Positions 2,106 through 31,080 of a stretch of DNA of 64,000 nucleotides are shown one piece after another. The DNA comes from Prochlorococcaceae cyanobacterium (GTDB lineage Bacteria; Cyanobacteriota; Cyanobacteriia; PCC-6307; Cyanobiaceae), in NCBI GenBank assembly GCA_044375975.1, contig JBILLQ010000006.1, forward strand, positions 1,901-65,900. Reading direction: 5' to 3'. Within the stretch, counting starts at the first letter, position 1; each line of letters starts with the position of its first letter. The notes beneath the pieces were generated by a model. That model was given only the letters and a program-made list of their open reading frames with translations, was not told where the DNA came from and made no database searches. The position numbers were made by a program, and so were the translations under genes.

Positions 2106-5100
2106 TCACGCCGCCCACACCTCACGCTTGAACTCACGCAGCACGCCATCCAGCTCACCGGCGAACATCCGATCGAGCCGCTGCCAGCCGCCCCCCTCGC
2201 GGCGGAAGATCAGGGCATCGTCATCGAGCGCTTCGCGATCCACGATCGTGATCGCCTTGGTTTGATTGGCGATGCGTTGCAACCACTGGCGTTGGGGTGT
2301 GGTCCAGCTGCGGGAGGCCAGGATCCGTTGCAGCGCCTTATCCACCCGCTGGTCGTAGGGCACCAGCGAATCTCCCAGAGCCGCCTGGCGGATGTAGCCC
2401 ATGATCGAAGCGGCCATGGCCTGGTTGGTGGTTTCACGCCAGGCTGTGGCCAGGGTCGCCTCGTTGTAGCCCCGCTGATCGAGGGCAAGCCTTAGCTCCC
2501 GCAGATCCTTGCGGGTGAGTTCCCAGGGCCGCTGCAGCACGGTGGTAAGGGCCGGCAGGTCGTTGCCGCTGTCGCGCACAAAGGCTGTGAAACCATCCAG
2601 GTAGTCCTCCGGGCGGGTGGCCTCGCCATAGCCCCGTTCAATCGATCGCAACGCGTCGTCGTGTTCGGAGAGGAATTGGGGCTTGGCTGGTCCGTCCCAC
2701 TGCTGATCCAACAACTCAGCCAAGCCGGGGATCGTGCCAAGCCAGCGCCTGGCCTCGGTGATCGGCAGCTGCTGCAGGCGGTTGATGAAGTCGGCGGGTT
2801 CTTCGCCGGTGAGCAACCGGAACTGGGCCGTTTGGTTTTCGCTCAACCGCTGTTGCTTGCGCCGCAGCTTGGCGATCAGCTGTTGTCGCACCAGCTCGCT
2901 CTCCTCGCCCTCCGTGGTTTCCAGTTCTTGGAACAGCTGGCTGAAGCTGATATTCGGGTTCACCACCACCGGCTTCATGTCTGTGAAGTTCTTCAGCGCC
3001 TCGTAGATCCGAACGGCATCAAAGATGCGGAAGTGGGTCTTGTCGATCGCATCACAAAGGCGGGTGGCGCGGCCGATCATCTGGTCGTAGAGGATGCGGC
3101 TGTTCATCCGCCGCAGGAACACGATGTTGCAAATGGCGGGCACGTCCACACCGGTGCTGAGCAGATCCACCGTTACGGCCACATTGGGAAAAGCTTCGTT
3201 CTTGAAGCGGCGTATCAACTGCTTGGGCTTATCACTGTCACCGGTGATCTTGGCAACCGCATCATTGGGCACACTGCCATAGCGACGCTGGAAGGCTTCT
3301 TTGAGCAGCATCACCACCAGATCGGCATGGGCGTCGCTAACGCAGAAGATCAGGGTTTTGTAGGGGGAAAAGGGATCCAGCTCATCGGCGAGCGCTTCGC
3401 AAACCACCTGGTTGAACGGGTCCGTGATCACATTGCGGTTGAAGGCCTCCACCTCAAAACGCAACTCATCCGGCGTAGTGAACTTATCAATCTGTGTGGT
3501 GGTTGGATCGTAAAATTTAACTTCCTCGCCAGCAGCCCAGCCAATGCCTTCGCTGGAGAGTTCGGTGTTGATTCGGATCGGTGGTTCATGGTCCACCAAA
3601 AAGCCATCCACCACCGCCTCGCGGTAGCTGTACACGAACACCGGTTTCCCAAAGATGCTCACCGTGTGCAAGGCCGGCGTGGCTGTGAGGCCGATCTTGA
3701 CGGCATCAAACATCTCGATCACCCTCCGGTACTTCGAGACGTAGTCGTTGAAATCTCTGAAGCGCAGCTCAAGCTCACTCAGCTCCCGATCTAGCAGATA
3801 GCCCCGGTGGCATTCATCCACCACGATCAGGTCGTAGGTGTCCACCGTGGGCTTTTCTTCCTCGCTGCCAAGCAACAGGCGCTGCACCATCGCCTGCACG
3901 GTGGCGATGTGTACTCGAGTATCGCTTTCTGCCTCGCGATCGCCCAGTTCTTTGATGCCGTAGATGTCGGCAAAGCTCTGCAGGCTCTCCATGCGAGTTT
4001 CCTTGAAGGCATCGGCGGCCTGGGTGCCGAGTTCAGAGCGGTCCACCAGAAACAGCACGCGCCGGAATCGCCCGGTTTTGAGCAGCCGATAGATCAGGGC
4101 AATACAAGTCTTCGTTTTGCCCGTGCCGGTGGCCATGGCGAGCATGATCTCCCGTTGGCCTGCTGCAATCGCCGCTTCAGTGGCTTCGATGGCTCGCCTC
4201 TGGTAGGGCCGCAGCGGAAAGCCAAAGCTGAACAATTCCTGCCGCAACTTCGCCTGGGCCAGATCCACGTCCTGGCGAGATAGCGCCTTGAGCCCCTCTG
4301 CTGAATACCAGCGTTCAAGGGGGCCGGCGAGATTGTCGCTGCGGCGCAGATCGCGGAACCAGATGCCGCTCTTGGTGCGCAGTTGGTTCAAGAAGGGTCG
4401 GCCATTGCTGGAGAAGGCGAAGGGGATGCGGAACTCGCCCGCTGAACCCCAACCCTGGGCCTTCAGTTCTGTTTCTTCACTTGGTTGGAAGTCCCGGCAA
4501 TAGCGCTCAGCCTGGGGCAGCTTGCCCGCCACATCCTTGTTGGCCCGCTTGGCCTCCACTGCCGCATACGGGGTCAGGCCAACAAACAGCAGGTAATCGG
4601 CGGGTCCGCTGCTGGTGGGCCACTCGGCGATGGCCAGGTTGCGGTTCTTTTGCGGTCGCGATCCCTTCCCATAACGAAGGGTCTGCGTGTCCGCCTCCCA
4701 GCCCGCTTGGCGCAACTGCTCGTCGATCAACTGGCGGGTGGCCGCCTCATCCAGTTCGATCGAACCAGCGGCTTTTCGTGCCGCCTGCAGCAATCCCGCC
4801 GAAACCGCTCCCGGTTGCCTGGCGGCGGTATTTTGAAGGGCTTCCAGTTGGGCAGCGAGGGCAACCTTGTCCACCTCAACCGCTGTGGCCAACTGTTCCC
4901 ATTGCTGCTGATCGTCGAGGGCCTGTTGCAGCTGGGCCTCCGTAGCGCTTAGCTGCTCGGCTACGGCACCTTCCTGGGCGCGGAAGGCATCAAGCGCACT
5001 CTGCAGGCTGGCCAGCTCAGCGCGTAGTCCTTCGCTTTCATCGGCCGGGGGCTGGGGAGGGCGAAATGGACCACTGCGGAACTCGGCATCCGAGAAGGTG

Positions 5101-5474
5101 CGGTGAAACCACACCCCCAACTGCCAGGCGATCTTGAGGGTGTTGAGGGCGCTGGCATGGTCGCCGTAGAGCTCATGGTTGGCGTCATTTCCTTTCGAGC
5201 GCAGGTCATGAAAGAGAGCTGACACCTCACGCTCAATCAGGCCATCGAACTCCAAGCGTCGAATCAAGGCCAGTTGCGTCTCCTGGGCGCTGGTGAACAC
5301 CCCAAAACGGGACGCCACCTGCTGGGCCAGCCGTTCACCAAGCTGCCTCAGCTTGATCAGTGCCGTATTCGGATCCTCGGGGAAATATCTTTCAGCTAGC
5401 GACCCAAGCCGGAACAACTGCTCGTCGTAACTGCGCAGATGGACGAAGTTGGTGCTCACAACATCTCCGCCCAT
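2106..5474 (-). CDS. hsdR: Type I restriction enzyme R subunit (HsdR-like) with N-terminal DUF4145-like domain and coiled coil
   Basis: 1122 aa. The N-terminus (..LFHDLRSKGNDANHE..) is DUF4145-like and is followed by an Ala/Gln/Glu coiled coil. A PD-(D/E)xK core follows (ADYLLF..VEAKR), then SF2 motifs MATGTGKT and VVDECHRGY. Confidence 0.9.
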   Translation of the reverse strand: MGGDVVSTNFVHLRSYDEQLFRLGSLAERYFPEDPNTALIKLRQLGERLAQQVASRFGVFTSAQETQLALIRRLEFDGLIEREVSALFHDLRSKGNDANHELYGDHASALNTLKIAWQLGVWFHRTFSDAEFRSGPFRPPQPPADESEGLRAELASLQSALDAFRAQEGAVAEQLSATEAQLQQALDDQQQWEQLATAVEVDKVALAAQLEALQNTAARQPGAVSAGLLQAARKAAGSIELDEAATRQLIDEQLRQAGWEADTQTLRYGKGSRPQKNRNLAIAEWPTSSGPADYLLFVGLTPYAAVEAKRANKDVAGKLPQAERYCRDFQPSEETELKAQGWGSAGEFRIPFAFSSNGRPFLNQLRTKSGIWFRDLRRSDNLAGPLERWYSAEGLKALSRQDVDLAQAKLRQELFSFGFPLRPYQRRAIEATEAAIAAGQREIMLAMATGTGKTKTCIALIYRLLKTGRFRRVLFLVDRSELGTQAADAFKETRMESLQSFADIYGIKELGDREAESDTRVHIATVQAMVQRLLLGSEEEKPTVDTYDLIVVDECHRGYLLDRELSELELRFRDFNDYVSKYRRVIEMFDAVKIGLTATPALHTVSIFGKPVFVYSYREAVVDGFLVDHEPPIRINTELSSEGIGWAAGEEVKFYDPTTTQIDKFTTPDELRFEVEAFNRNVITDPFNQVVCEALADELDPFSPYKTLIFCVSDAHADLVVMLLKEAFQRRYGSVPNDAVAKITGDSDKPKQLIRRFKNEAFPNVAVTVDLLSTGVDVPAICNIVFLRRMNSRILYDQMIGRATRLCDAIDKTHFRIFDAVRIYEALKNFTDMKPVVVNPNISFSQLFQELETTEGEESELVRQQLIAKLRRKQQRLSENQTAQFRLLTGEEPADFINRLQQLPITEARRWLGTIPGLAELLDQQWDGPAKPQFLSEHDDALRSIERGYGEATRPEDYLDGFTAFVRDSGNDLPALTTVLQRPWELTRKDLRELRLALDQRGYNEATLATAWRETTNQAMAASIMGYIRQAALGDSLVPYDQRVDKALQRILASRSWTTPQRQWLQRIANQTKAITIVDREALDDDALIFRREGGGWQRLDRMFAGELDGVLREFKREVWAA

Positions 5475-6122: not shown

Positions 6123-7310
6123 GTGGATCCCACTCGTAACCCGTTCGCCCCAGGAGCCGGAGCTCGTCCGCCCGAACTGGCTGGCCGCGAATCGATCATC
6201 GAGGCCGCCAACGTCGCCATGCAGCGCATCCAGCGCGGCCGGCAGGAGAAAAGCCAGATGCTGCTGGGTCTGCGGGGTGTGGGCAAAACCGTTCTGCTCA
6301 ACAGGCTCGCCCAGCTCGCCGAGGACATGGGATCCATCGTGGTACCTCTTGAGGCTCCTGAGGGTCAGCGGTTGGCCGCTTTTTTGGCGCCGGCCCTCAA
6401 GAGTGTGCTGCTGCGGCTGAGCCGTGTGGCCCAGGCCCGCGAACTCGCCCAACGCGGGCTGGGAGCCTTGCGCGGTTTTGCCAGTGCCTTCAAGGTGTCG
6501 ATCGGGGAGATCGAGCTGTCCATGTCTGCGGAACCGATCGCCGATAGCGGCAATCTGGAGATTGATCTGCCGGAGTTGATGGGAAGTGTGGGCAGGGCTG
6601 CGCAAGCAGCAAATACAAGTGTCGTCATCCTTCTCGACGAGGTGCAATATCTGTCAGAAGAAGATCTGCGCGGTCTGATCGTGGCCATGCACAGAATTGC
6701 TCAGCGAGGCTGGCCTGTGATCCTGTTCGGCGCCGGTCTGCCCCAGGTTGCAGCCTTGGCTGGGGAGGCTAAGTCGTATGCGGAGAGATTATTTGACTAT
6801 CCTGAGGTTGGTCCGCTGCCTTCCGCCGCAGCCCGTTCAGCTCTTCTCGATCCGATAGTGGAGGAAGGTGAATCCATCAGCGAGGATGCCCTAAATAGAA
6901 TCCTCTCAATCACCGAGGGATATCCTTATTTTCTGCAGGAGTGGGGCAAGCATTCCTGGAACACAGCGGGTAGATCCCCCATCACCGCAGACGATGTGGA
7001 GATGGCCAGCAGCCTGGCCACGGTGGCACTCGATCGAAGCTTTTTCCGCGTGCGGTTCGATCGGCTTACTCCTCGAGAACAGGACTATCTGAGAGCGATG
7101 GCCGCTCTGGGGCCTGGCCCCCATCGCTCTGGAGACATCGCCGATGCCCTGGGTATCAAAGTGCAACAGGCCGGACCGCTTCGTAACGGCCTGATCAAGA
7201 AGGGAATGATTTGGAGCCCAGCCCACGGGCAGACGGCTTTCACCGTGCCGATGTTCGACGCCTTCATGATCCGGGCCATCCCTGAATGGAAGCCGGAACG
7301 GTTGGTCTGA
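6123..7310 (+). CDS. AAA/ORC-like ATPase with C-terminal winged-helix-like region (orphan)
   Basis: 395 aa starting NPFAPGAGARPPELAGRE. Walker A is GLRGVGKT and Walker B is VVILLDEVQ. The C-terminus (..REQDYLRAMAALG..) looks wHTH-like. Confidence 0.8.
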   Translation: MDPTRNPFAPGAGARPPELAGRESIIEAANVAMQRIQRGRQEKSQMLLGLRGVGKTVLLNRLAQLAEDMGSIVVPLEAPEGQRLAAFLAPALKSVLLRLSRVAQARELAQRGLGALRGFASAFKVSIGEIELSMSAEPIADSGNLEIDLPELMGSVGRAAQAANTSVVILLDEVQYLSEEDLRGLIVAMHRIAQRGWPVILFGAGLPQVAALAGEAKSYAERLFDYPEVGPLPSAAARSALLDPIVEEGESISEDALNRILSITEGYPYFLQEWGKHSWNTAGRSPITADDVEMASSLATVALDRSFFRVRFDRLTPREQDYLRAMAALGPGPHRSGDIADALGIKVQQAGPLRNGLIKKGMIWSPAHGQTAFTVPMFDAFMIRAIPEWKPERLV

Positions 7311-7382
7311 ATCATGCTTCAGCAGATCGGGCGTGAGGGCGCCCTCACCCCACCCCACCCCACGGCTGGTACCGTGCTGGCC

Positions 7383-7550
7383 TTACACCCACTGGTTGCA
7401 CAAAAGCTCTGCTTGGGCGAGCACGGTTTTCACCGCCTCTTCCTGAAGATAGGGTGGATAGCCATATTTGCTAAGGATGCGTTTCACCATCACACGGATC
7501 CGAGCGCGGGCGCTTTCGCGTAAGGTCCAGTCAATGGTTACCATTGGCAT
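7383..7550 (-). pseudogene. Isolated C-terminal fragment of a classical HsdR (DUF3387-like tail)
   Basis: A 55-aa ORF below the track cutoff: MPMVTIDWTLRESARARIRVMVKRILSKYGYPPYLQEEAVKTVLAQAELLCNQWV. It matches the conserved HsdR C-terminal DWT.RE..RA..RV.VKR.L.KYGYPP pattern. No helicase body lies upstream. Confidence 0.65.
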
Positions 7551-7598
7551 GGTGAGCGGGCTGTGGCTTGATGACAGGAGCCGTATGACGCGAGAGTG

Positions 7599-7991
7599 TC
7601 ACTTACGGATCTGTGGGGGCCTCGGGGGGAAGTTCCCCGGGGCTACCCGGCGGGATTGTGGCGGGTGTGCTTCATGGTGCTTCTCCTGGCCCAGTTTGGC
7701 CGGTAGGGAAGCTCTCATTAGGGCTGGATCAGTTTCCGGGGCCCACGTCAGCTGCGCTGAACCGTCAACAGCGTCAGCATCAGCAGGAGGACTGCCATGA
7801 TCCGCCTGTTGCTGGCGCAGCAACCGCAACACGGATTTTGGGTGGTACCCACTGATCTCCACCAGTTCATCCACCAGCTCTGTTTTTCCCTGGCAACTCA
7901 GTGCCTGGTAACGGCTACGGGCCGTATCCAGTAGGTGCCGACGCCGCTGGCGCGGCAGGCGCCTTTCACTGGAGCTGGACGCCGGAGACAA
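7599..7991 (-). pseudogene. Transposase N-terminal (HTH) remnant, rve-type IS
   Basis: ..RYQALSCQGKTELVDELVEISGYHPKSVLRLLRQ.. resembles the KxxKxxILDEfxxxTGYHRKyAiRLL motif of integrase-core transposases. The remainder is low complexity and no DDE domain follows. Confidence 0.45.
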
Positions 7992-8056
7992 AGTGACAAA
8001 ATAGCTGAGTCAACATTACGTCGCCAGTAATGAAGGCAGTGAGTCAACACGCCCGC

Positions 8057-8356
8057 TTATCTACGCGTCGTCGGATTCAAAAAGGGATCGCATCCCCGAC
8101 ATGGCTGCCAGCCGCCGCCATGAGATGGTGCACCGTATTCTCCGGTACCACCAGCCATCTCCTCCAGATCCTCATCGCTGAGCTCCAGGTTCTGTTTTGC
8201 CTGATACTTCAACCAATCAGCCTTGCTGACATCAAACCCTGCTTCTTTCGCCAGGGCTACAGCCGCATCTAGGTCGGCAGCAGCCTGAAGCTTGTCCCTG
8301 AGAGCAGCATCATCCTTGAGCTTGACAAGCAGTGCTGCGAGTTGCTCTTCTGACAT
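8057..8356 (-). CDS. procA: Nif11-leader (N11P) class II lanthipeptide precursor, prochlorosin-like; core TGEYGAPSHGGGWQPCRGCDPFLNPTTRR
   Basis: The 70-aa leader MSEEQLAALLVKLKDDAALRDKLQAAADLDAAVALAKEAGFDVSKADWLKYQAKQNLELSDEDLEEMAGG ends in a double-Gly site. The 29-aa core has 2 Cys and 4 Ser/Thr. The ATG at 8356 was chosen by conservation among the three copies. Confidence 0.9.
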   Translation of the reverse strand: MSEEQLAALLVKLKDDAALRDKLQAAADLDAAVALAKEAGFDVSKADWLKYQAKQNLELSDEDLEEMAGGTGEYGAPSHGGGWQPCRGCDPFLNPTTRR

Positions 8357-8520
8357 CGTCTGATACTGCAGGCACCCATCCATTCATAGCCCAGCCCCCC
8401 ACAACCAGTCAGCAGCCCTCAGCACAAACTCACAAAGCCACTCCCATAGCCAGTCATCCCCACTCCCACCCCTACAACGGGCACTACGGCAGGTTAGAGA
8501 GTGATGGACTCAGCGAATGG
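8357..8520 (-). promoter_or_regulatory. Conserved 5' region/promoter of procA copy 1
   Basis: Almost identical to 9432-9595 upstream of copy 2. A possible sigma70-like pair TGACTG-17nt-TATGAA lies about 35 nt before the ATG (weak match). Confidence 0.35.
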
Positions 8521-9155
8521 TGCAGTGCCTTTCTGCCGTTGGCACCCACTCTCAATGGGTGCTTCAAGTGCTATGAGCGGTTCTGCCAAAACTATCTCCA
8601 TCTCACTAAAAGTGCTCCCAAGTGCCATTTGGGTATTCGGATCCTTAAGCGATTGTTTGAGATGGGAGTACTCAGGAGTAAAAAGAAGATGCGAGTATCG
8701 CTAGAGCAACGGCAACTGCTCTTGCATTTAACTTGCGTCTCAATCAAATACCTGGCAACTGGGGGCAGATTGCGGTAAGATTTGAGGACACTAATGGCAT
8801 CCGCGATGGCAACTGAGCGCGAATTATTTGGTAGTTGCGTTGAGGCAATGCGTGTATCGATAGAGTTAAAGAATGTAGGTGGCTAGCTTTACTCCGGATA
8901 GAAATGGCTGAAATTTTTTTGGATGGGGAAGCGGCTCAGGGTTGGCGGCGAACAGGCAAAAAGGTGCCAAGTCGGATGTTGCATTTAGGTGCTTTGAGAG
9001 TGATTGAAGAATTAAAAGCTCCTGTGGTTGCAGGGGCTTGAAGGATTGGGCTACTAAGTTTAACGAGGGGCGATTAGCACCGGGCATGAGGGCCGGCACT
9101 GGGGCGTACATTAGTAGTGCTATTACACTCCCAGTTAGTTATTGTGGTCTTAGGG

Positions 9156-9431
9156 TTAGAATTCATAGGAGAATGTTTGGAAGGGGTTTCGTGTGCAGGG
9201 GACACTATCATCAGTAATGGTGCCACCAGTCACCCCCTCCAGCTCCTCATCGCTGAGCTGCATGGTTTGCGTTGCCTGATACTTCAACCAATCAGCCTTG
9301 CTGACATCAAACCCTGCCTCCTTCGCCAGGGCTACAGCCGCATCTAGGTCGGCAGCACCCTGAAGCTTGTCCCTGAGAGCAGCATCATCCTTGAGCTTGG
9401 CAAGCAGTGCTGCGAGTTGCTCTTCTGACAT
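9156..9431 (-). CDS. procA: Nif11-leader lanthipeptide precursor; core TITDDSVPCTRNPFQTFSYEF
   Basis: 70-aa leader ending ..LSDEELEGVTGG. The 21-aa core has 1 Cys and 6 Ser/Thr. Confidence 0.9.
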   Translation of the reverse strand: MSEEQLAALLAKLKDDAALRDKLQGAADLDAAVALAKEAGFDVSKADWLKYQATQTMQLSDEELEGVTGGTITDDSVPCTRNPFQTFSYEF

Positions 9432-9595
9432 CGTCTGATACAGCAGGAACTCCTCCATTCATAGCCCAGCCCCCCACAACCAGTCAGCAGCCCTCAGCAC
9501 AAAATCACAAAGCCACTCCCATAGCCAGTCATCCCCACTCCCACCCCTACAACGGGCACTACGGCAGGTTAGAGAGTGATGGACTCAGCGAATGG
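9432..9595 (-). promoter_or_regulatory. Conserved 5' region/promoter of procA copy 2
   Basis: See 8357-8520; there is one mismatch over the 141 nt aligned. Confidence 0.35.
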
Positions 9596-10250
9596 CATCC
9601 TTCCTTCCTGCAACTGGCATCCACTCTCAAAGGGTGCTCCAAGCACTATAAGCGATATTACCAAAACTATCGCCATCATACCAAAGGTGCTCACAAGTGC
9701 CATTGGGTCAGTCGGATGCTCAAGCGATTGCTTGAGAAGAGAGTAAGCAGGAGCAAAAGAAGACATGAGTGTCACCAATGCAACGGCAAATACCCTTTAT
9801 TTTTGATTGTCTTTTTAATCAGCTCCCCGATGAGTTGGGTTAGATTGCTGTCGGATTTAGAAGGGATCATAGCATCGGAGATGGTGACAGGGAGCGGCGT
9901 ATATGGTGGCTGTGTTGAGAGAATAAGTGTATCGCCGGAGTTAAAGAGAGGAGATGGCTGGCTTTGCTCCGGGCCCACGTCAGGGTAGAAATAGCTAAAT
10001 TTTTTGGGCGGGAAAAGCGGCTCAGGGTTGGCAGCGAACAGGCGAAATGGTGCCAGGTAGGATGTCGCATTTAGGTGCTTTGAGAGTGATTGAATAACTA
10101 AAAGCTCCTATAGTTGCAGGGGCTCGAAGGGTTAAGATGCCGAGGTTAGCCGTTATCGCAAGAGGCGATTAGCCCTGGGCACGAGAGCCGGCAGTGGGGT
10201 GTACATTAGCGGTATCATTACACCCCTAGCGAGTCGTAGTGATCCCAGGG

Positions 10251-10508
10251 TTAGAAGTCGTAAGAGATATCTAACTCCCAGTCATCAAAAAAGGAACAAC
10301 CACCAGTCACCCCCTCCAGCTCCTCATCGCTGAGCTCCAGGGTTTGCTTTGCCTGGTACTTCAACCAATCAGCCTTGCTGACATCAAACCCTGCCTCTTT
10401 TGCCAGGGCTACAGCCGCATCTAGGTCGGCAGCAGCCTGAAGCTTGTCCCTGAGAGCAGCATCATCCTTGAGCTTGGCAAGCAGGGCTGCGAGTTGCTCT
10501 TCTGACAT
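10251..10508 (-). CDS. procA: Nif11-leader lanthipeptide precursor; core CSFFDDWELDISYDF
   Basis: 70-aa leader ending ..LSDEELEGVTGG. The 15-aa acidic core has a single Cys at core position 1 and Ser at positions 2 and 12. Confidence 0.9.
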   Translation of the reverse strand: MSEEQLAALLAKLKDDAALRDKLQAAADLDAAVALAKEAGFDVSKADWLKYQAKQTLELSDEELEGVTGGCSFFDDWELDISYDF

Positions 10509-10810
10509 CGCCTGACGGACATACGGTGTTAATGCCACCACTTAGCTTACCCCCAAGAGCCTTCAGTAGTCCTCAGCACAACCTCACAAAGTCACTCCCA
10601 TAGCCACCACGAGCTCCAAAGACCTCCCAGCACCTTTCCAAAGCCTTCTTCGCCCGCCCCGCCGAGCAGGTCGCCACCCCGCTCATCAGCTGCCTGCCAC
10701 GGACACCGCCGCCAAAGCCACAACAACGAAACGCTGTTTGAGGAATCTGAGCGGTTTTATGTCTCTGTGAGTTATGGCGTCCACCATTGTGTGGATGTGG
10801 TGGATTGCCA

Positions 10811-13800
10811 TCAGCCTCTCACCTGTGGCCAGTCCAGCAATCCCGCGCTCAGCAGCGCTGGCAGCCAGCGCAGACCATCCACGGCCTCAAGCAAAGCAAG
10901 CGCCACACCCGCCTTACCGGTGTAGAGACCGGGCAGGTTGAGCGAGCCGTTGTCGACGCTGAAATATGTATAGCCACCGCTGGCTCGAGCCTGGTTAATC
11001 ACGGCGCTCTCGGCTGCAGCCACAGGCGCTTCCAGCTCCTGGCCGCTGACTTGGGCATCAATCCGCAGCAGGCTGGTGAGTCCAAGCACCCCGCAGCAGA
11101 GATGGGCAGGAGCCTCGCCGGCGCGGCTCGAGAGTTGCTCCAGGCTGGTCAGCGTGCTGGCCCTGGCACTCTGCTGCTCGGCCGCAGTTTGTTCATCCGC
11201 CAGAGCCGTTGCACAAAGAATCCAACGCGAGAGCAGGATTCCAGGTGCCCCATGGCACCAGCTGAGCATGAATTCACTGGGTTCACTGCTGGTCCTGAAA
11301 TCGGGCCAGTTGCCACGATCGCCATCAAAAACGGATCGCTCATAGGCCACCGCATGGCGTGCTCCCTTGGCAAAGCGTTCCTCACCGCAGGCCTGGGACA
11401 ACCGCGCCAAGGCAGCAGCCATGCCTGCAGCGCCGTGAGAGAAACCTGTGAGGGGCTGCTTCCCGAGGCTGGGCAATCCCGCAGGCCAGCCGCCGCTATC
11501 GAGCTGGAGCGACAGCAATCGGTCACCGCAGATGACCGCGAGCTCCTGGGCCCTTGGGGTGCCTGCAAGCAGCAGCGGGCCGATCAGTCCACAAACCCCG
11601 CCGATCACATCGATGCCCTCATCGGCCAGCAGCCGCTCAGGGCGGAGTTGATCGATCAGCAGTTCGGCCAGCGCCGACGCATCCTGCAGCCCTGAACGCT
11701 GTAGCAACTGCAGCGCCAACAAGATCCCCCCCGAGCCTGCAATCCCATAGGGCTGATCGCGAACCAGGCGAAACAACTGATCATTACTGTTGCGCTCGGC
11801 CAGCTCGGCCAGGCTTTCAAAGCAGCTCCAGGCCCGTTTGCGCCACAGCTCAGCCGTCTCACCGGCGCTGGCCAGGGCGAGGCGGGCAAACAGCAGGGCG
11901 GTGCCGCTGCCGCCCGAATAAAGCGAATTGCCGATTAAACCGAAGTGGAACGATTCACCATCGGCACCCAGGTCGATGCCCAACCATTCGGGACGGCCCT
12001 TGGTGTCGCTGATGGCGTCATCCCAGAGCTCCTGACCCAGCCGAAACGCCTCCTGGCGGTAGGCCTCTGGATCGACAACGTCGTTTGCATCGCCTGTGGC
12101 GCTGGTGCGCACAGCCCCTGCGGCAGCGACCGCAGTGGCGCTTGTCTTCAGCTGCCGTGCAGCGATCGCGCCCCGGATCAGCTGCAGCTGGAAATCGATC
12201 TCAACCTGATCCAGAGTCAGCAGGCGCCGGCACGCGGCAGTCAGACCACTGGCTTTCATGAACTCCTGGATCGGAGCCAGTCCCTCGGGCAGTGGGAGCT
12301 CTTCACCGTCAATCGAATGCTCAAAAAAGGGGATGTCGAGCCGCTCCATCTGCAGCAGTTCGGCCTTCAGCATCAGCCAACTGATCGGCTTCTCCCTGGC
12401 CAGCACAAAGCTGCGGCTCAGCTGCTCGAGCTTGAGCCCATGCACCACTGCGTTGCGCAGAGCGGCTGGCTCCAGCATCTGCCGCTGAATGATGAAATAC
12501 AGGCGTGTGGCCCGTGCCACCAGGCGCCGCGGTTGGCCGCGGAAGCCATCGAGAGCCTGCTGCAGCAAGGGCTTCAGGCGGATGGCTTCCTGCAGCTGGG
12601 CGGCAAAGCCACTGCACAGCTCATCAACAAAATCGTTGAGGCGCTGGGGGCTGCCCAGGCCCACCGGCAGGCTGGTGGGCAACTCACAAGGCTGCCTCAA
12701 ACGGCCGGCCATCATGCCGTCGCTGTTGAGGCCCAGCCAGCCGGGCATGGTGCGTTCTGGCGGTGGCGGCTGAATGCCGAGGGCACTGATGTCCAAGGCC
12801 AATTTGCGGCCAGCGCCGACCATTAGCCACTGGGGCAGCAGGCCTGAGCGCAGCACCGAACCCTGCATCGACGTCTGCAACGCCGAGATCGCATCGGGAT
12901 CATCGCCGTCGTCACTGATCAGGTTGCGCGGATCGGCCTCCAGCAGAGTTTCGGTATCGATCAGGATCAGCTGATCGCCGCTGGCGATCAGGTTTTCGTA
13001 GTGGCAATCGGTGCAGCCCAGCAGGTGCAGCACCGCCATGGTGCGGCCTGCATTGGTGTAAAAGCGGGCCAGCTCCTCATCGCTTGTACAGGGGCGGTGC
13101 TCCACCCACTCCATGAAGCCGTAGCCATCTTGGTTGATCACCATCAGTCTGCGCAAAGGCTCCAGATCTGAGGTGTCGTTGAGCGCTTGCAGATAGGTCT
13201 GGTAGGTCGCATCGACCTGCATGTCCTTGGGCTTGTAGACAACCCTGCGTGCGTCGTCTCCATTACCAAAGGTCAAAATCGCCACCGCGCGGCCGCCTCG
13301 GTGCGGATCGCTCAGGCCCAGCTGGATCGAGGTCGGGTAAGCATCGCCAGCGATGGCGAAGTTCAGCGCCAGCTCTTTTCGGCTGGCGGCCAGCCGGCGC
13401 AGCATCTCTTCGCTGGCGTCCAGCCAGAGTCGGCAAACCACCGCAAGCAGGCGGCCCAGCACGGGATAGTCCGCCAGCAGCAAGCTGTAGCCGCTGCGCA
13501 ACAGGTCGCCAATGAAGCCGTCATAGGCCTGATGAACCGGGCCGCCCGTACCGTCGCCTTGGGCCCCCAGGTGAGCCAGCAGCATCTGGCCTGGGGTGCG
13601 CCGCTGGTGGAACAGCTCCCAGAGGGCCTGATCGGCCGTTTCGCACAACCGCTCCAGCAGGGCTTCTCCCAGATCTAGCCAGGCCGCCTCGGTGAGCTGC
13701 AGCTGGGAATCCAGGTCGGCGCAGCTACATTTAAGTCGTTCCAGCGCCCAGCTAGCGGCTGGCCGCCAGGCATGGGCAAACGGTTTGCTGGCCCCGCGCT

Positions 13801-14143
13801 CAGCCAGCAGCTGGTGCTCTGCGCAGGCAGCGGCATCGCGGCCCGCCTGGCGCAGGGCCTCCAGCAGCGGCCACCAATCAGGATTCTGCGGTACGGCCAG
13901 ATCCGGTGGATCCAGAGCCCAGACAGCGCTGGTCTGATTCAGTCCGTTCCAGGCGAGCCGCTTGTCGAAATTGTCAGGCTGATCGGGGGCCACCACCTGA
14001 CGCCAGCTCTCAAGCGCCAGGTTGCTTTGTAGGTTGCCTGGTACGGCCATCGCCGCTTCAAGCCGCTGATGCAGGCTCCAGCCCTCGCGGCGCAGTTGCT
14101 TCTCGAGCGTGGTGTCCTGCTGCTCCGAAACCACGTCCTGCAC
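10811..14143 (-). CDS. lanM: Class II lanthipeptide synthetase LanM (ProcM-like, CCG zinc-site type)
   Basis: 1110 aa. The N-terminal dehydratase region contains [19 protein letters not shown]. The C-terminal LanC-like cyclase has [16 protein letters not shown] and HLCCGVLG. Confidence 0.95.
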
Positions 14144-14196: not shown

Positions 14197-16368
14197 TCAC
14201 CCCTCCATGCGATTCAGGTAGCCACCCGGCTGGTGCTGAAGTTCGTCAAAGGTGCCCAGTTCACTGATCGTTCCGCCAGAGATCACAGCGATCTGGTCGG
14301 CAGACTCGATCGTTGAAAGTCGATGGGCAATGGCAACCCTGGTGATCGCCAGCGATGCGAGGGTGCGGGTCACCGCCGCCTGCGTTGGGGCATCCAGGGC
14401 ACTGGTGGCCTCATCGAGGAGGAGTATTTTGGGTTTGCCGATCAGAGCTCGGGCCAGCGATAGCCGCTGCCGCTGGCCCCCTGAAATGCCCATGGCCCCC
14501 TCACTGATCATGGTTTCGAGCTTCATCGGCATGCGCTCCACATCGTCTGCGATCGAGGCCTGATCCAGCGCCTGCCACACCTCCTCACGGCTGTAGGCCC
14601 TGCCGGCGCGCACCACGTCATAGATCGAACCCGTGGGCAGGGGCGAGTTTTGCAACACCACCCCGAGCTGGCGGCGGTACTGGCGCACAGCCAGGTTGCG
14701 CAGATCGATCCCGTCGATGTTGATCACGCCAGCTTCCGGTTCCATCAACCTCAGCAGACAACGCAGCAGGGTGGTCTTGCCACAGCCAGAAGCGCCCGTG
14801 ATCGCGGTATAGCACCCTTGCGGAATGGTGAGATTAATCTGCTTAAGCAGCGGCGCTGACGCATCTGCATAGCGCACCTGCAGGTTATTCATTTCAATCT
14901 GCCCCACGAGCTTATGCATCTGCGCGGCCGCCCCATGGCCGGCTTCAGGGGTGGCAAACATCACCACGCTGCTGCGCTCCCAAAGCACCATCAGCTTGGC
15001 CACCGAGTTTGCCACCTGCACCGTCAGGGATGACAACTGGCTGTTGAAGGACACATAGGCCGCCTGAAAGGCGACAAAGGCCGCCACAAGCTGGTTGGCG
15101 CCCATCATCGCAAGTCCACCTGAATCGGCGGCCTGGGTCTTGGCCTGATCCAGCATCCACACCAGAGCGATGAACACCACCACCTGGCCCAGGGGTGTGA
15201 GCACCCTGGCCAGCACTTCCAGGGCATTGTTAGCGGCCTGACCCCGAACCATCAACGCACCGAGACGCACCACATCGTTTATCCACTGTTCAAAGACAAA
15301 GGGCTCACTGCCGCTAACTCGGATCTGGGGCATGCCGACCACGGCTTGCAGTCCCATGTCATTGATCCGCGCTTGGCCCTCCTGAAGGGGTTGTTCGAGC
15401 TTGGCGGCCTGGAGCACCAGCAGCAGCATCACCACGGCACTCACCAGGCTGAATGCCGCTGCCACCAAGGCCAACTGGGTCTGGTAGATAAACATCAATG
15501 CCAGGTTGCTGAGTGAAAACAGCAGGCCCAGCCCGGCGTTGAGCAGGCCGCTACTCATTAGCTGCCGCATCTGACTGATTGAGCCCACCCGGGTCACCAG
15601 ATCGGCGGTGCCCAGGGTCTGGAAAAACGCGATGGGCAGCCGCAGCAGGTGGCTCCAGACCCCTGCCTCCAGGCGCAAGTTCACCAGGGATTCCATCCGC
15701 ACTGTGGCCAGGCTGCTGAACCCTTGGGACACCACCGTGCACAGGGCGATCAACATCACCACCAGCGAGGTTTCGACCACTAGCCGCAGCTCCCCCAGGG
15801 GCAACACCGTGCCCACCAGGAACGCGGTGAGCATGGGAATGCTGAGGTTGAAGATCGCCACCACCACAGCGCTGAAGACGACCGTGAGCAAGGGGGTGAT
15901 GTGGCTGCCCAGGGCAAAGCTCAACAAACTTCCGAGGGAAGCCAGGGGGACCGGCAGTGAGGCATAGAGCTCGAAGGCGTAGGGCTTCAGCGCCAACTCA
16001 GGCTGCAATGGCAGGCGCTGACCGCTGCGGGGGTCAAAGGTGACGGTTTGTCCAGCCAGGCGATGCACTGCCAAGGATCGGCCATCGTCTTCCGCAAAGA
16101 CAATCAACATCGCCCGGGTGGAACGGATTAGATCGGTTGGTGTTTTGACCTCCCGGTGGGTGATGTTGTTGATCTCAAGCAGATCGCTAAAGCTGCCTTC
16201 GGAGGGAACAATGGGGCGCCCATCCCCAAGCACCGCCATGGCGTAGCTCAAGGCCCTGCAGCTTGGATCACTCGAATTGCCGCTAAAGGTCAGCTCGTCC
16301 AGCCCCTGCTGCTGCACGGCGGCCATGCCCCGTAGGAGCGCCTGCTGACGGGTGTGCGCGAGGGTCAT
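14197..16368 (-). CDS. Bacteriocin-export ABC transporter permease/ATPase, no active peptidase domain (NHLM/N11P system second ABC)
   Basis: 723 aa with a non-catalytic N-terminal domain and a 6-TM region. Walker A is GASGCGKTT, signature ISGGQRQRL, Walker [17 protein letters not shown] overlap with the upstream ABC gene. Confidence 0.9.
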
Positions 16369-18554
16369 TGTCTGCGTCCTGCTGGGGCACTCACCAGCTC
16401 GGCCTCCAGCAGCAGCCGGTAGTGCCCGTTCGCTTCTGCCAGGTCCTTCGGGTGGCCCTGTTCAACCAATTGACCTTGTTCGAGCACTATGACCCAATCG
16501 CTAATCTGGGCTCCATACATCCGGTGAGCCACGGTAACCAAGGTGCGAGGTGTACGTTTGATTGCCGTTAGAATTTGCTGCTCTCTCCGTTCATCGAGGG
16601 CACTGGTGGCCTCGTCCATCAGCAGCACGGTGGGCTGGTGCAGCAGGGCCCGGGCAATCTCAACCCGCTGACGCTGACCGCCGCTGAGGTTGCCGCCGCC
16701 CTCGCCCAGTTGCATTGCCAGAGCACCGGCACCGCCCAAATCATCGAGTAGGCCCGCTTCAGCCAGAGCGGTCAGGGCGTCACTGGAGCGAAAGCGTGGA
16801 TCCCAGAGGCTGAGATTCTGCTCCAGCGTCGCTGGGAAAAGAAAAACATCCTGGGAGACAAGGGCAATCGAGGCGCGCAGGGTGGGATCGTCCCAATCGA
16901 GCCAATCGCGGCCGTCGTAAAGGATTCTCCCCTGACTGGGGCGATACAGGCCGGCGATAAGCCGCAGCAGGGTCGATTTACCCGAACCACTGCCCCCAAC
17001 GATCGCCAGATGTGCTCCTGCCTGAAGGCTCAGGTTCAGGCCGCCAAACATCAGCGGCGTGGTGGAACTGAACTGGTACCCCAGATCGCTGAGCTCCAGA
17101 GAACCGGCCAGCTGTCGCTGAGGGCGATCGTCTGCTGCCGCCATCTGAAAACTGCGAACCAGCGGATCAACTTCGGTGTCGATCACATCATTTACCCTAC
17201 CCATTTCGCCGTCGAGCTGCTGCAGCTGGGTGCTCAGCAAGTTGAGCTGCTGTAAGGGGGCCTGAATCATGCCCATCAGAAACTGAAATGCCATCAATTC
17301 ACCTAGGGTAATTTGCCCCATGATGATCATCACACCGCCAAGCAGGATCACACTGCAGCGCAGCAAAAATCCCGAGGTGGTTCCGATCAGACCCACCAGC
17401 GAGGTGGCCAAAGATTGTTTTTGCAGCTCAGCGAGTGCATCATTGAAACTTCCAGACCATTGCATGAATGATTCATTTTCCAGGCCACTGGCCTTGATGC
17501 TCTCAATGCACTGGATCACATACATGCCAATACCAGCAGCCTTTCCCTGCAGCACTGCTAGCTTGTAATTGTCGCCTTTTCTCACCTCGCGAATCCAAAG
17601 AGTAAGGGCGGAATTGCCGCCGGCAATCGCTACTGTGAGCAGGGATAGCCAAGGGGAGATCAGCAGACCAACCAGCAGGGCCAGCAGGCCTGAGCCGAGC
17701 GAGAGCACAAAGCCGATGACGCCATTGACGCTGAGTTGCACCAATGAGAAAGGCAGAATCAACCGCGTCGCCACCTCACCCCGCATGCGTTGCACGAAAT
17801 AGCGATACGGCAGGCTGAAGAGGGAGATATAGAGCAGGCTGCTGATGCGTTTAAGCAAGAGGAAGCCAAGGCTCCGCAGCAACAGCTTCTGAAGATTAAG
17901 CAGCGCGATTAGCACCACCACAGCGATTCCCGTGATCCAGATTGTTGGGATCGCGATGTTTTCCCGACCCTCTTGAAGAAAACTATCGATGAACTGGCTG
18001 GTGGCACCGGCGATGAACAGCTCGGGCAGGGCCCCTGCCAGCGACACTAGGGCGAGCCAAGGGATCAGGCTGAGATAGGGCTTGAGCAGGCTGGGCACCC
18101 AGTGATAAAGCCCGGGCTCGCTGCCTCCACGCCTGAATGCCGAGCCTGGGTGTAGCTCCAGTACGACGCCGGTGAAGCTGGCCTGGAACTCCTCCCAGTC
18201 GACACGGCGGCGCCCACTGGCGGGATCACTCAGAAACGCTTGGCCGTGCTCGAAGCCTTCGAGCACGAGAAAGTGATTAAAATTCCAGAACAGGATGCAG
18301 GGGTAATGACCAGTCTTGAGCAGCGCATCGGCGCTGCGGCGAAAGGCCTTCACCTCGAGTCCGTAGCTCTGGGCAGCCCGCTTCAGTTGTATTGCGGTGA
18401 CCCCATCGCGGCTGATACCACATCGTTCACGCAACTCGGCTAGAGGCAGAATCTTGCCCAAATAAGCCATCACGATCTTGAGGCTGGCGGCTCCGCATTC
18501 CACCGACTCATACTGCAGCACTGTGGAGGTCACCACCCGAGACTTCCGATTCAT
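16365..18554 (-). CDS. Bifunctional C39 peptidase / ABC transporter (double-glycine leader cleavage and export)
   Basis: Starts MNRKSRVVTSTVLQYESVECGAASL, with catalytic Cys20 at 18495-18497. NHFLVLEGF supplies the His motif. The ABC part has GGSGSGKST, LSGGQRQR and [15 protein letters not shown] overlap with the hlyD stop. The 779-aa track ORF is an upstream extension. Confidence 0.9.
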   Translation of the reverse strand: MNRKSRVVTSTVLQYESVECGAASLKIVMAYLGKILPLAELRERCGISRDGVTAIQLKRAAQSYGLEVKAFRRSADALLKTGHYPCILFWNFNHFLVLEGFEHGQAFLSDPASGRRRVDWEEFQASFTGVVLELHPGSAFRRGGSEPGLYHWVPSLLKPYLSLIPWLALVSLAGALPELFIAGATSQFIDSFLQEGRENIAIPTIWITGIAVVVLIALLNLQKLLLRSLGFLLLKRISSLLYISLFSLPYRYFVQRMRGEVATRLILPFSLVQLSVNGVIGFVLSLGSGLLALLVGLLISPWLSLLTVAIAGGNSALTLWIREVRKGDNYKLAVLQGKAAGIGMYVIQCIESIKASGLENESFMQWSGSFNDALAELQKQSLATSLVGLIGTTSGFLLRCSVILLGGVMIIMGQITLGELMAFQFLMGMIQAPLQQLNLLSTQLQQLDGEMGRVNDVIDTEVDPLVRSFQMAAADDRPQRQLAGSLELSDLGYQFSSTTPLMFGGLNLSLQAGAHLAIVGGSGSGKSTLLRLIAGLYRPSQGRILYDGRDWLDWDDPTLRASIALVSQDVFLFPATLEQNLSLWDPRFRSSDALTALAEAGLLDDLGGAGALAMQLGEGGGNLSGGQRQRVEIARALLHQPTVLLMDEATSALDERREQQILTAIKRTPRTLVTVAHRMYGAQISDWVIVLEQGQLVEQGHPKDLAEANGHYRLLLEAELVSAPAGRRQ

Positions 18555-20125
18555 TTGTTGTCGACCACCAGGCCAAGAGCACGCCTGAGTGCAGGCATCA
18601 CGAATTCGACCGGCCGCCGATACGTAGTGGTGATCTGCACGTCGGCCAGGGTGGCCAGGCGCACAGGGTGGGGCGGCAAACGTCCCGAGCTCCAGCGGTA
18701 GCAATCGTAGCTACTGCCACTTCTGCACCGGTCCGGAGTGGTTTGCTCCAGCTGAACCCGCGCCAGATACGGAGTGAGAGTGATCTGTTGGATCGGATTT
18801 ACCAGGGCACGACTCCCCACCGCTCCCAGTAGCCCATCACCCTGAAGGGGCAGCTTGTTGACCTCAATGACACGCCCTGGAATGCCACCGTATTGGGCCC
18901 GGGAGATCCCCTTCGGCGTCACCAGCACCTTCATACCTTCACTCACCTGCTGGGCGGCTGAAGGGTCTAGAAAAACGGGAATTAAACTGGGCAGAGATGG
19001 TGACATCTTCGTGAATATGAGCAGCTCATCACCTTGTTTGACAAAAGTACCATTCACGAAATTGCGGGCCAGGATATAGAAGCCATTCACGGGCGCAAAA
19101 ATGGTTGTGGCGCTGAGGTAACTGACTAGTTGATTTTCGAGCTTGTTAAGGTTGTCAATGCTTGAAACGATGGCTTGCTTCGACTGCTCAAGCTGCTCAT
19201 CGCGACTGATCGAGGTGTTGACCTGAGCGGAGTCGGCGCTGAGCAGCTGCCCCTCAAGTGCATTGATGCGCGATTGCTCTTCCAGCACGGTGGTGCCAGG
19301 TAAATACCCCTGCTTCCAAAGGGTTAGATAGCGTCGATAAAGATCACGACGTTGCTTGAGTTCGGCAACAAGAGTTTGCCGCTGGTTGCTTTGTAAGCCT
19401 CCCAACTGGCTAAGGGTGCCCGCTCGAGCAAGTCTTTCGGAGCGCTGCTGGCGATGCAGCTTTTCGGCTGGCAGTATCCCCAGTAAGGCTGCATTTAACT
19501 CCAGATGGGCGGCTTCATTCTCTATGCGGGCTATAACGGTGCCACTGGGATAACTCAATGTGATCGGTCTGCTCTGGCGTTCAACAGCTTTGGAGGTTGC
19601 CAGGTTTGCCGGTAAGAGAAACGTCTGGCCCTGTACGGATGCCAGTGCCGCTTGCACCAGTTCTGCCAACTTGGCCGCATCATTCACATTGCTGGTGAAG
19701 ACGGTGGCTTGGCTCCGCCAGAACTGACCCAACATCTCATTGCGTTGACGCTGCAGCGCCGGCAGGTTGTTGGCACCAAACCCGCTCACCTGATAGCGAA
19801 GGATCCCCGAGCTGGCCGCATTCAGGCTTTCCAAACCGCCAGGCGGCACGATCGCGCCGGTGCCGTTCACCTGGACCGGAACCCGAGCCAGGACCGACCA
19901 AAGCACCCCGAGCATGGCGATGGCGGCCGCAGCAATCGCCGTGAGCCGAACTGGCAGCGGCAAAAAGGCGACCGGTTTGGTGGCATCAGCTCCAGCCTTG
20001 AGGCGCTCCAGCGCCACCTGTTCAAAGATCTCGAAGCGTTCGGCCGCCCGTTTCGGGGAACCGCCGCATTCGACTGGGGCAGAGCCCTGTTCAGGATTGA
20101 ATCGATCGTCCGGGGGGGAGGGCAT
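18551..20125 (-). CDS. HlyD-family membrane-fusion/secretion protein of the bacteriocin exporter
   Basis: 524 aa with a single N-terminal TM (LTAIAAAAIAMLGVLWSVLA). It has long coiled-coil segments and a C-terminal beta-barrel-like region, as in type I secretion adaptors. Confidence 0.85.
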   Translation of the reverse strand: MPSPPDDRFNPEQGSAPVECGGSPKRAAERFEIFEQVALERLKAGADATKPVAFLPLPVRLTAIAAAAIAMLGVLWSVLARVPVQVNGTGAIVPPGGLESLNAASSGILRYQVSGFGANNLPALQRQRNEMLGQFWRSQATVFTSNVNDAAKLAELVQAALASVQGQTFLLPANLATSKAVERQSRPITLSYPSGTVIARIENEAAHLELNAALLGILPAEKLHRQQRSERLARAGTLSQLGGLQSNQRQTLVAELKQRRDLYRRYLTLWKQGYLPGTTVLEEQSRINALEGQLLSADSAQVNTSISRDEQLEQSKQAIVSSIDNLNKLENQLVSYLSATTIFAPVNGFYILARNFVNGTFVKQGDELLIFTKMSPSLPSLIPVFLDPSAAQQVSEGMKVLVTPKGISRAQYGGIPGRVIEVNKLPLQGDGLLGAVGSRALVNPIQQITLTPYLARVQLEQTTPDRCRSGSSYDCYRWSSGRLPPHPVRLATLADVQITTTYRRPVEFVMPALRRALGLVVDNK

Positions 20126-30855: not shown

Positions 30856-31080
30856 CACTTCTAACCAGAGACTCAGGTTAAGATGCCTTTGACTTCCTCC
30901 CCGCCGTGAACAGCGGAGATTCCTTCTACGCTAGGCATGGGAATGCCTCACCGATCGGGTGGGTTGGCGCTTCACAGCCTGCTGCCACCGCAAGGGTGGA
31001 CTTATGCGCGGCTCCACGCCCGTTTCGACTCTCCGCCAGTCCGGCGGCGAGAATGTTCAAAGCGGCGTTGATATCGCGGT
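30856..31080 (-). ncRNA. Predicted TnpB-associated omega/right-end RNA (extent approximate)
   Basis: In IS605-family elements this RNA spans the tnpB 3' end plus the right end. A 9-bp hairpin TCTCCGCTG-TTCA-CGGCGGGGA (30898-30919) followed by GGAAGTCAAAG lies 7-28 nt after the tnpB stop. Confidence 0.35.

Follow-up and report, generated by a model that had tools for sequence, protein, structure and literature searches.

The stretch of DNA analyzed here, a 64-kb window (61% G+C) of contig JBILLQ010000006.1 from a Prochlorococcaceae cyanobacterium, carries three Nif11-leader peptide precursor genes in tandem on its minus strand, a region that, judging from its gene families, is the array of precursors belonging to a class II lanthipeptide cluster of the prochlorosin type in a picocyanobacterium from fresh water. 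The anatomy of the repeated cassettes, the mosaic of identity among them, a polymorphic conversion tract, and the replacement of whole cores are directly visible in the array and its population variants. We put at roughly three in four the probability that ordinary homologous recombination between cassettes and between strains made this mosaic, with general RecA-type recombination, rather than a dedicated enzyme, as the likely agent.

Homogenized leaders and unrelated cores in a tandem array

The true ATG codons (MSEEQL) of the three genes lie at 8356, 9431, and 10508 and their stops at 8057, 9156, and 10251. Start-to-start spacings of 1075 and 1077 bp define a repeat unit of about 1.08 kb. 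The precursors and the regions upstream of them are as follows.

10251-10508 (−): precursor A3; leader 10299-10508, core CSFFDDWELDISYDF at 10254-10298; Nif11 PF07862 E 6e-16, TIGR03798 E 1e-21
10509-10605 (−): promoter-proximal region of unit 3, 64-65% identical to units 1 and 2
9156-9431 (−): precursor A2; leader 9222-9431, core TITDDSVPCTRNPFQTFSYEF at 9159-9221; Nif11 E 2e-15, TIGR03798 E 5e-20
9432-9595 (−): homogenized upstream tract of unit 2; promoter-like CTGACT at 9487-9482 and TATGAA at 9463-9458; includes the 5′ edge of a transposase relic
8057-8356 (−): precursor A1, terminal cassette; leader 8147-8356 ending in GCTGGTGG, core TGEYGAPSHGGGWQPCRGCDPFLNPTTRR at 8060-8146; Nif11 E 4e-15, TIGR03798 E 2e-20
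8357-8520 (−): homogenized upstream tract of unit 1; promoter-like CTGACT at 8412-8407 and TATGAA at 8388-8383

All three precursors score 56 to 59 bits on PF07862 (cutoff, 23.8) and 71 to 76 bits on TIGR03798 (cutoff, 32.3). Each has a 210-nt leader ending in a double glycine (VTGG or MAGG), and each of the three cores contains Cys plus Ser/Thr. The promoter-like elements, read by eye as CTGACT-18 nt-TATGAA about 30 nt before the ATG, suggest that each cassette may be transcribed on its own; related loci L010, L012, and L014 have TATAAT in the alignment column of TATGAA. A consensus promoter and terminator scan called neither the cassette promoters nor the hairpins described below.

The initial annotation had singled out a nearly identical 5′ region, leaders that differ mainly at their ends, and scrambled cores, and all three features hold up. 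On recomputation, 8380-8520 and 9455-9595 agree at 140 of 141 positions, the leaders of A1 and A2 differ at 10 of 70 residues in the alignment (eight of them within the last 18), and the core DNA is 18 to 33% identical after alignment, which is at noise level. Homology returns, as had also been noted, at the last four or five codons, ...GA(C/A)TTCTAA (SYDF or SYEF plus stop), and continues downstream, with 77.9% identity over 271 columns between 8897-9158 and 9984-10253; A1 has no homologous 3′ flank after the gene. The view that homology is confined to two flanks bracketing the core has to be widened, since units 1 and 2 are homologous across the entire spacer (about 1.0 kb).

Unit 1 and unit 2, compared in a sliding fashion over 50 nt at a time, show a strongly non-uniform profile. 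Identity is 56 to 80% over most of the spacer, about 90% around the hairpin (9040-8940), and, after an abrupt step, 98 to 100% from 8520; it is 94 to 98% in the leader to about 8200, 70 to 80% in the last 50 nt of the leader, and 30 to 46% in the core. The longest fragment with at most one mismatch spans 142 columns versus a maximum of 82 in 10,000 permutations with the cores left out, and divergence is therefore not uniform across the unit, so that the objection of a uniform divergence fails. Unit 2 is itself mosaic, with 32 informative sites within the 95 nt preceding the ATG that join it to unit 1 against unit 3 and seven sites within the last 60 nt of the leader that join it to unit 3 against unit 1. 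Homology common to the three units stops at about 10605/9527/8452, which in units 1 and 2 is the start of a transposase relic; beyond about 10605, unit 3 has a relic of mpg in place of the transposase relic.

Could such a pattern have arisen with no exchange between copies? Selection alone, acting after an old tandem duplication, would then have kept the promoter and leader for the lanthipeptide synthetase (LanM), the C39 peptidase, and transcription, and the core would have drifted or diversified through point changes and indels. The leader is indeed functionally constrained (Nif11 family), indel-driven core divergence is the published view (bioRxiv 10.1101/2020.03.09.984088), and the A3 core and a core found in the population on contig L033 (SFFDDFSLYVSYDDY) are linked by substitutions and one indel, which shows that gradual core change occurs as well. 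However, the 140/141 tract does not code on the sense strand, its conservation between genomes is only about 70%, and the first 180 nt of the leaders are 94 to 96% identical at the nucleotide level within the genome versus 52 to 84% to the leaders of other genomes, the within-genome paralogues thus being far more alike. These observations, the mosaic structure of unit 2, and two features of the haplotypes described next make selection without exchange improbable.

Recombination events among population haplotypes

Exact-protein look-up of A3, A2, and A1 retrieved haplotype contigs from many samples, all of them short-read metagenome assemblies, which we parsed into five arrangements (cores in order from LanM).

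H1, window type: CSFFDDWELDISYDF / TITDDSVPCTRNPFQTFSYEF / A1
H2, contig L003: A3 / TVLFEDYRVSLTWVNKGPEDYEF / contig exits the array
H3, contigs L030, L032, and L037: TGT[L/R]TSRYNCKAYWTGGEVDN[L/W]VFTTTDDF / A1; two copies only
H4, contig L031: TGTLTS… / TIIDDSVPC… / A1
H5, contig L033: SFFDDFSLYVSYDDY / A1, after the end of an IS5-like transposase

The comparison across metagenomes that the initial annotation had proposed thus shows that both cassette number and core content vary, with five further cores beyond those of A1 to A3 at this locus in the population. A1 is found in every haplotype whose contig extends to the array end, and its exact protein is carried by 31 public contigs versus 11 for A2 and 10 for A3, which fits a constant terminal cassette and variable inner cassettes. 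On contig L033, positions 1-294 encode the C terminus of an IS5-like DDE transposase directly upstream of the array, and a similar transposase is located at 3160-3699 of L010.

Single events can be read from these haplotypes. The homogenized tract reaches about 37 bp further out in L031 than in the window, and the tract end is polymorphic: unit 1 of L031 has unit-2 bases at all 12 diagnostic sites in 8521-8556, and 13 of its 14 differences from the window over 8521-8896 fall within that interval, with few scattered differences otherwise. The nearest diagnostic site on the outer side is only 7 bases off, and no k-mer overlap could have yielded this flip by misassembly. The joint flip of paralogue-specific bases between two near-identical haplotypes largely refutes selection without exchange. 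In the last cassette of L030, L032, L037, and L033, the sequence is of unit-2 type to 8521 and of unit-1 type from 8429, and this crossover interval (8429-8521) falls in the 140/141 tract, as unequal homologous exchange predicts; two-copy haplotypes were seen in three independent assemblies.

Whole cores have been replaced as well. Relative to the window, cassette 1 of L031 has no differences in the 5′ region and leader, then an unrelated core that is 45 nt longer, then 14 differences in the next 125 bp, and none thereafter. L003 shows no differences over 10.9 kb and diverges from about 9558: its upstream tract differs by 12%, its leader by 5%, and its core by 59%. Over the first 150 bp past the stop of its second cassette, identity is again about 95%, and homology fades to none by about 8890. 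Haplotypes with unalignable cores between identical flanks differ by no more than 1% elsewhere, a further point against selection acting on its own. The replaced segments run from the leader-core junction, marked by the octamer RCTGGTGG, into the 3′ flank, extending beyond the hairpin in L003 and stopping at the hairpin edge (about 10125) in L031.

This octamer ends each leader (junctions at 8148-8155, 9223-9230, and 10300-10307 on the minus strand; junction sequence GGTGACTGGTGG), where a G-rich run, GGAGGGGGTGACTGGTGG, is found, and GCTGGTGG, the end of the A1 leader, is the chi sequence of E. coli. Across the 64 kb, RCTGGTGG is present 51 times versus 8.3 expected from dinucleotide shuffles, a six-fold excess with no occurrence beyond 48.6 kb and uncontrolled for codon usage (CTG GTG). 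We considered a chi-site role for it and drew no conclusion, as the octamer ranks among codon-driven CTG-rich octamers. A second ACTGGTGG within the L031 core was considered as a fusion scar and dropped, as the octamer is common in the genome.

It is very improbable that faulty assembly or a collapse of repeats produced the sharp boundaries in identity. Contigs L004, L005, and L008 do end inside the array, as is usual for repeats, but the same three-copy sequence was obtained from independent samples and two pipelines, and the independent assemblies L002, L006, and L008 are 99.99 to 100% identical across all boundaries, which disposes of the objection of assembly collapse.

The initial annotation had suggested that conserved flanks around a variable core would permit gene conversion or core exchange, and the mosaic unit 2, the L031 tract, the two-copy junctions, and the swapped cores support this. 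The unit is a cassette composed of a precursor gene (procA) and a relic of the transposase gene tnpA_REP, arranged as a promoter-like region, a Nif11 leader, a hypervariable core, a hairpin in the 3′ untranslated region, an intergenic block, and the relic on the opposite strand. Gene conversion and unequal crossover would hold the promoter and leader near-identical and alter copy number, whole cores together with about 125 to 270 bp of 3′ flank would be brought in from other cassettes, and purifying selection on the leader would act in addition. The protein families of the cluster suggest that a single LanM would modify the peptides, which would then be cut after GG and exported via the C39 ABC (ATP-binding cassette) transporter.

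Several observations weigh against this account. No recombination protein is linked to the array, and every variant haplotype rests on a short-read metagenome assembly. The two-copy contigs could be repeat skips if the identical tract exceeded the assembler's k; the exact identical run measures 91 bp in the window type and, in the L031 type, 134 bp. Both values are below 141, the k of contigs L032 and L033, which carry k141 in their names (MEGAHIT style). The leaders being already identical, the core replacements have no placeable 5′ end, and part of the conservation of the promoter and leader must come from purifying selection. Further, two population variant cores, at 11071-11352 of L003 (TVLFEDYRVSLTWVNKGPEDYEF) and at 788-1045 of L033 (SFFDDFSLYVSYDDY), have no Cys, so that no lanthionine ring is possible in the products of these cassettes.

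Transposase relics, a conserved hairpin, and a possible role for RayT

The spacers contain more than had been thought. The initial annotation had found no open reading frame (ORF) in them to be conserved between copies, and this did not stand: the plus-strand ORFs at 8332-8778 and 9407-9988 share homology with one another and with the RayT/TnpA_REP C-terminal domain (E 1.5e-29). The following spacer features were identified.

9545-9922 (+): tnpA_REP (RayT) relic, P0098 residues 139-261, tblastn E 8e-28; converges on A3
8470-8828 (+): tnpA_REP (RayT) relic, P0098 residues 139-257, frameshift near 8720, tblastn E 6e-26 in two frames; converges on A2
8841-9013: conserved intergenic block of about 170 bp from relic end to hairpin, 84-90% identical between copies; counterpart at 9936-10099
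9014-9039 (−): hairpin downstream of A2, AAGCCCCTGCAACCACAGGAGCTTTT, exact motif; predicted fold −9.4 kcal/mol
10100-10125 (−): terminator-like hairpin downstream of A3, copy with one mismatch; predicted fold −10.9 kcal/mol

The RayT homology surfaced solely in an exhaustive HMMER search with the 193-residue plus-strand ORF 9407-9988, which matched 103 clusters, including those of the full-length 261-residue proteins P0098 and P0153. Both have Y1_Tnp (PF01797) matches (E 1.5e-13 for P0098 and 3e-18 for P0153), P0098 matches the NCBIfam model NF047646 (REP-associated tyrosine transposase) with E 4e-18, below the curated cutoff, and members of the P0098 cluster carry the IMG name “REP element-mobilizing transposase RayT.” P0098 has its HUH motif at residue 60 and the tyrosine of YIHANP at residue 122. 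As the relics start at residue 139, after both of these, neither contains the catalytic half; each corresponds to the 3′ 40 to 45% of a RayT/TnpA_REP gene on the strand opposite the precursor, and the truncation point is alike (residue 139 to 142, approximately) in the window, L003, L033, and L014. Neither Pfam nor the PDB sequences contain a match to the RayT C-terminal domain. Pfam scans of spacer ORFs on both strands gave nothing, and a PDB sequence search with a 130-residue antisense ORF of L020 gave noise only.

The intergenic block is the best-conserved part of the spacer. It is conserved in the freshwater loci L010, L012, L014, and L020 and, in the marine locus L019, only around the hairpin; in a comparison with marine Synechococcus PROS-7-1, only the hairpin and the transposase relic of the spacer were matched. 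Short ORFs are called in the block on both strands, and their frames switch among members. We considered that the block might encode a protein, but its antisense ORFs change frame between members and its sense ORFs cross the hairpin, and we therefore treated it as noncoding. Stop counts revealed no intact frame over 10 spacer copies, periodicity cannot separate the best sense and antisense frames (they share the same wobble phase), word-indexed searches with the block's consensus translated in sense and antisense yielded nothing beyond short hypothetical ORFs that have no domains, and no Rfam family was found within the cassettes.

The hairpin lies about 120 nt past the stop and has a T-rich tail. 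Its motif has no further copies in the window (0 expected by chance), and the same hairpin follows Nif11 genes in related loci, including that of PROS-7-1; compared by eye, it resembles the published marine consensus ACTCAAAGCCCTTGCATTAGCAGGGGCTTTTTATT. Its fold z-scores are weak (−1.1 to −1.7).

Related boundaries occur in a different setting on JGI 3300072551 contig Ga0634388_02413 (42 kb; L020 to L022), where units of about 7.07 kb stand at least four in tandem, each with small ORFs, a VapE-like/D5-type primase of 879 to 885 residues, and a helix-turn-helix protein. A Nif11 gene, the hairpin, and a tnpA_REP relic are present in every unit, and the boundary examined in detail in one unit comprises an mpg relic, the Nif11 gene, the hairpin, and a tnpA_REP relic (residues 116-257). 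These units look like mobile elements arrayed between precursor cassettes.

A rival hypothesis, that of Laurenceau et al., is that a dedicated RayT/TnpA_REP mechanism, in place of general homologous recombination, generates the cassettes and their diversity (bioRxiv 10.1101/2020.03.09.984088). In such a mechanism, a full-length enzyme encoded elsewhere in the genome would recognize the hairpin, the leader-core junction, or both on single-stranded DNA and mobilize or rewrite the core segment. Consistent with it, a tnpA_REP relic converges on every non-terminal precursor across a block and hairpin that freshwater relatives have conserved (and, for the hairpin, a marine relative too), the relics are cut at about the same residue in four loci, the replaced segments run from the RCTGGTGG octamer into the 3′ flank, and the procA-tnpA_REP association is published (bioRxiv 10.1101/2020.03.09.984088). 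However, the search of the window and of related loci turned up no intact tnpA_REP, the HUH motif and the tyrosine are missing from the relics, and the hairpin is not dispersed as REPs are. The observed events match plain homologous recombination, with a crossover in a long identical tract and a variable end of the conversion tract, and the authors' own post-submission note states that there is no strong evidence for or against causality (bioRxiv 10.1101/2020.03.09.984088). Nothing in our data requires a RayT-driven mechanism, and we consider it unlikely.

A specific form of it is a little more doubtful still, namely, that the hairpin, the block, and the 3′ end of tnpA_REP are the working end of a RayT-dependent cassette system in which a trans-acting RayT cuts the hairpin and the RCTGGTGG junction, thereby replacing or duplicating the core segment. 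If this were true, the array would belong to a generator of peptide-library diversity that is driven by a single-strand transposase and conserved in picocyanobacteria of marine and fresh waters, and the 7-kb units of Ga0634388_02413 would be the same ends capturing other cargo.

Genomic setting and comparison with known systems

The array follows directly on the modification and export genes of the cluster.

10811-14143 (−): LanM, class II lanthipeptide synthetase, CCG type, directly upstream of the precursor array
14197-16368 (−): second NHLM ABC subunit
16365-18704 (−): NHLM-type ABC exporter with C39 double-glycine peptidase domain; Peptidase_C39 E 2e-31
18551-20125 (−): 524-residue protein without a match in the Pfam scan
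20138-21799 (−): OEP outer-membrane factor (Pfam)

LanM matches Pfam DUF4135 (E 4e-99) and LANC_like and scores 678 bits on TIGR03897 (cutoff, 304). By inspection, its zinc-site motifs are WCHG (Cys963) and LCCG (Cys1016-Cys1017); such a three-Cys (CCG-type) zinc site in the LanC-like domain is typical of ProcM-like enzymes. As the only LanM in a cluster with three precursors, the enzyme would have to be promiscuous toward all three. The best NCBIfam matches of the two exporters are TIGR03796 (E 3e-198), for the C39-bearing protein, and TIGR03797 (E 2e-162), both under their curated equivalog cutoffs. In L031 and L005, lanM differences from the window are clustered, with 20 at 11277-11393, 14 at 12079-12161, and nearly none elsewhere; each of these two stretches spans about 100 bp, and they have the look of recombination tracts imported into the synthetase gene.

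A scan of genome contigs for related loci confirmed at least nine, and the nearest relatives among the matches listed are freshwater Cyanobium, Synechococcus UW140, and one lake metagenome-assembled genome. The mpg gene (methylpurine-DNA glycosylase, PF02245) recurs beside the array: a relic lies at about 10640-10830 (+), antisense between A3 and the lanM stop, and others are found at 4180-4515 of L012 and 347-640 of L020. In the cassettes of Cyanobium T1B-Tous (L012), an mpg 5′ fragment (FFARPAE…) is located upstream of the promoters, the first copy being confirmed by Pfam and the others read from ORF translations only, which suggests that the cassette promoter may derive from an mpg-procA divergent region. 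Outside the cluster, the window contains the following.

179-1681: hsdM, type I restriction-modification
2106-5474: hsdR, type I restriction-modification
6123-7310: AAA ATPase
7383-7550: stray HsdR C-terminal fragment (PF11867)
7576-7651 (+): group II intron domain V/VI relic (RF00029, 48.3 bits; gathering score, 40)
30926-32176: TnpB (IS605 OrfB)

The restriction-modification genes, the AAA ATPase, and the HsdR fragment flank the array, whose surroundings resemble a variable genomic island. The group II intron relic is situated just past the last cassette, with no reverse-transcriptase ORF nearby. TnpB and this relic are the only mobile-element genes in the window beyond the tnpA_REP relics; tblastn with P0098 and Pfam scans of the large ORFs found no intact tnpA_REP, integrase, or reverse transcriptase there.

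Among known systems, the REP/RAYT pairs of proteobacteria, whose E. coli TnpA_REP has a solved structure (PDB 4ER8, cited in bioRxiv 10.1101/2020.03.09.984088), are similar in that a homologue of a Y1 HUH transposase (P0098: PF01797, NF047646) is tied to a short conserved hairpin. Unlike them, the array holds only catalytically dead C-terminal relics, and its hairpin occurs once per cassette rather than in dispersed clusters. Identical flanks around hypervariable cores also characterize cyanobactin patE-type precursors and other natural libraries of RiPPs (peptides made on the ribosome and modified after translation) or toxins. The array shares with the patE libraries the near-identical recognition and flank sequences around unrelated cores in near-identical strains, whereas the enzyme chemistry is different and cyanobactin cassettes lie within one ORF, with no transposase relic in the unit. 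Like integron arrays, the locus consists of tandem cassettes in the same orientation with a structured 3′ element, and cassette content and number vary among strains. In contrast to integrons, it lacks an integrase, attI, and any attC-like site, its cassettes each come with a promoter-like region of their own, and the junctions fall in long homologous tracts and not at a site-specific core site; Pfam found no integrase among 30 large ORFs of the window, and a search of 7000-12500 for inverted repeats of at least 20 nt returned none.

The closest counterpart is the prochlorosin system, whose procA clusters are said to have been described by Li in 2010 and Cubillos-Ruiz in 2017 from marine Prochlorococcus LLIV and Synechococcus. 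In these marine genomes, procA genes lie in cis, often regularly spaced, full-length or C-terminal-fragment tnpA_REP genes face procA, and a hairpin-bearing intergenic region is conserved to the same degree as the leader, with diversity precisely in the core (bioRxiv 10.1101/2020.03.09.984088); in marine Synechococcus, tandem runs reach up to 16 precursors (PMC10783134). The array resembles the marine systems in its Nif11 leaders ending in GG, the several precursors per CCG-type LanM, the regular spacing in cis, the conserved leader with diversity in the core, the C-terminal tnpA_REP fragments convergent with procA, the conserved intergenic region with a hairpin of nearly equal sequence, and a GCTGG[N]GG-like octamer at the leader-core junction. 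It thus matches the published procA-tnpA_REP architecture feature for feature and is no new kind of system. It does extend this architecture to freshwater lineages, which suggests that the procA-tnpA_REP association is old or has been repeatedly maintained.

The differences are nevertheless informative. The nearest loci among the matches listed are freshwater ones, and the leader is of a longer subtype (…DVSKADWLKYQAKQTLELSDEELEGVTGG) with 54 to 58% nucleotide identity to PROS-7-1 leaders, and we therefore file the array as prochlorosin-type rather than as strict prochlorosin, whose hosts are marine Prochlorococcus LLIV or Synechococcus 5.1 and whose leader is the marine ProcA type. Unlike in the marine clusters, the precursors stand directly behind LanM and the exporters, the last codons, Y-(D/E)-F, belong to the conserved 3′ flank, and some cores have no Cys. 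How thousands of prochlorosin cores arise behind one leader is the open question on which the locus bears: Laurenceau et al. propose diversifying recombination, cite a chi-site model as well, and leave causality open, and the 2020/2022 preprint calls the molecular events behind core diversity elusive (bioRxiv 10.1101/2020.03.09.984088). The array is a simple system in which the homologous-recombination, chi-site, and RayT models can be put to the test. What it newly adds of most use, compared with the marine systems, is that its population haplotypes show recombination events directly: nearly identical to one another, with two or three cassettes and no fewer than seven different cores, they form a small natural series from which single events can be read.

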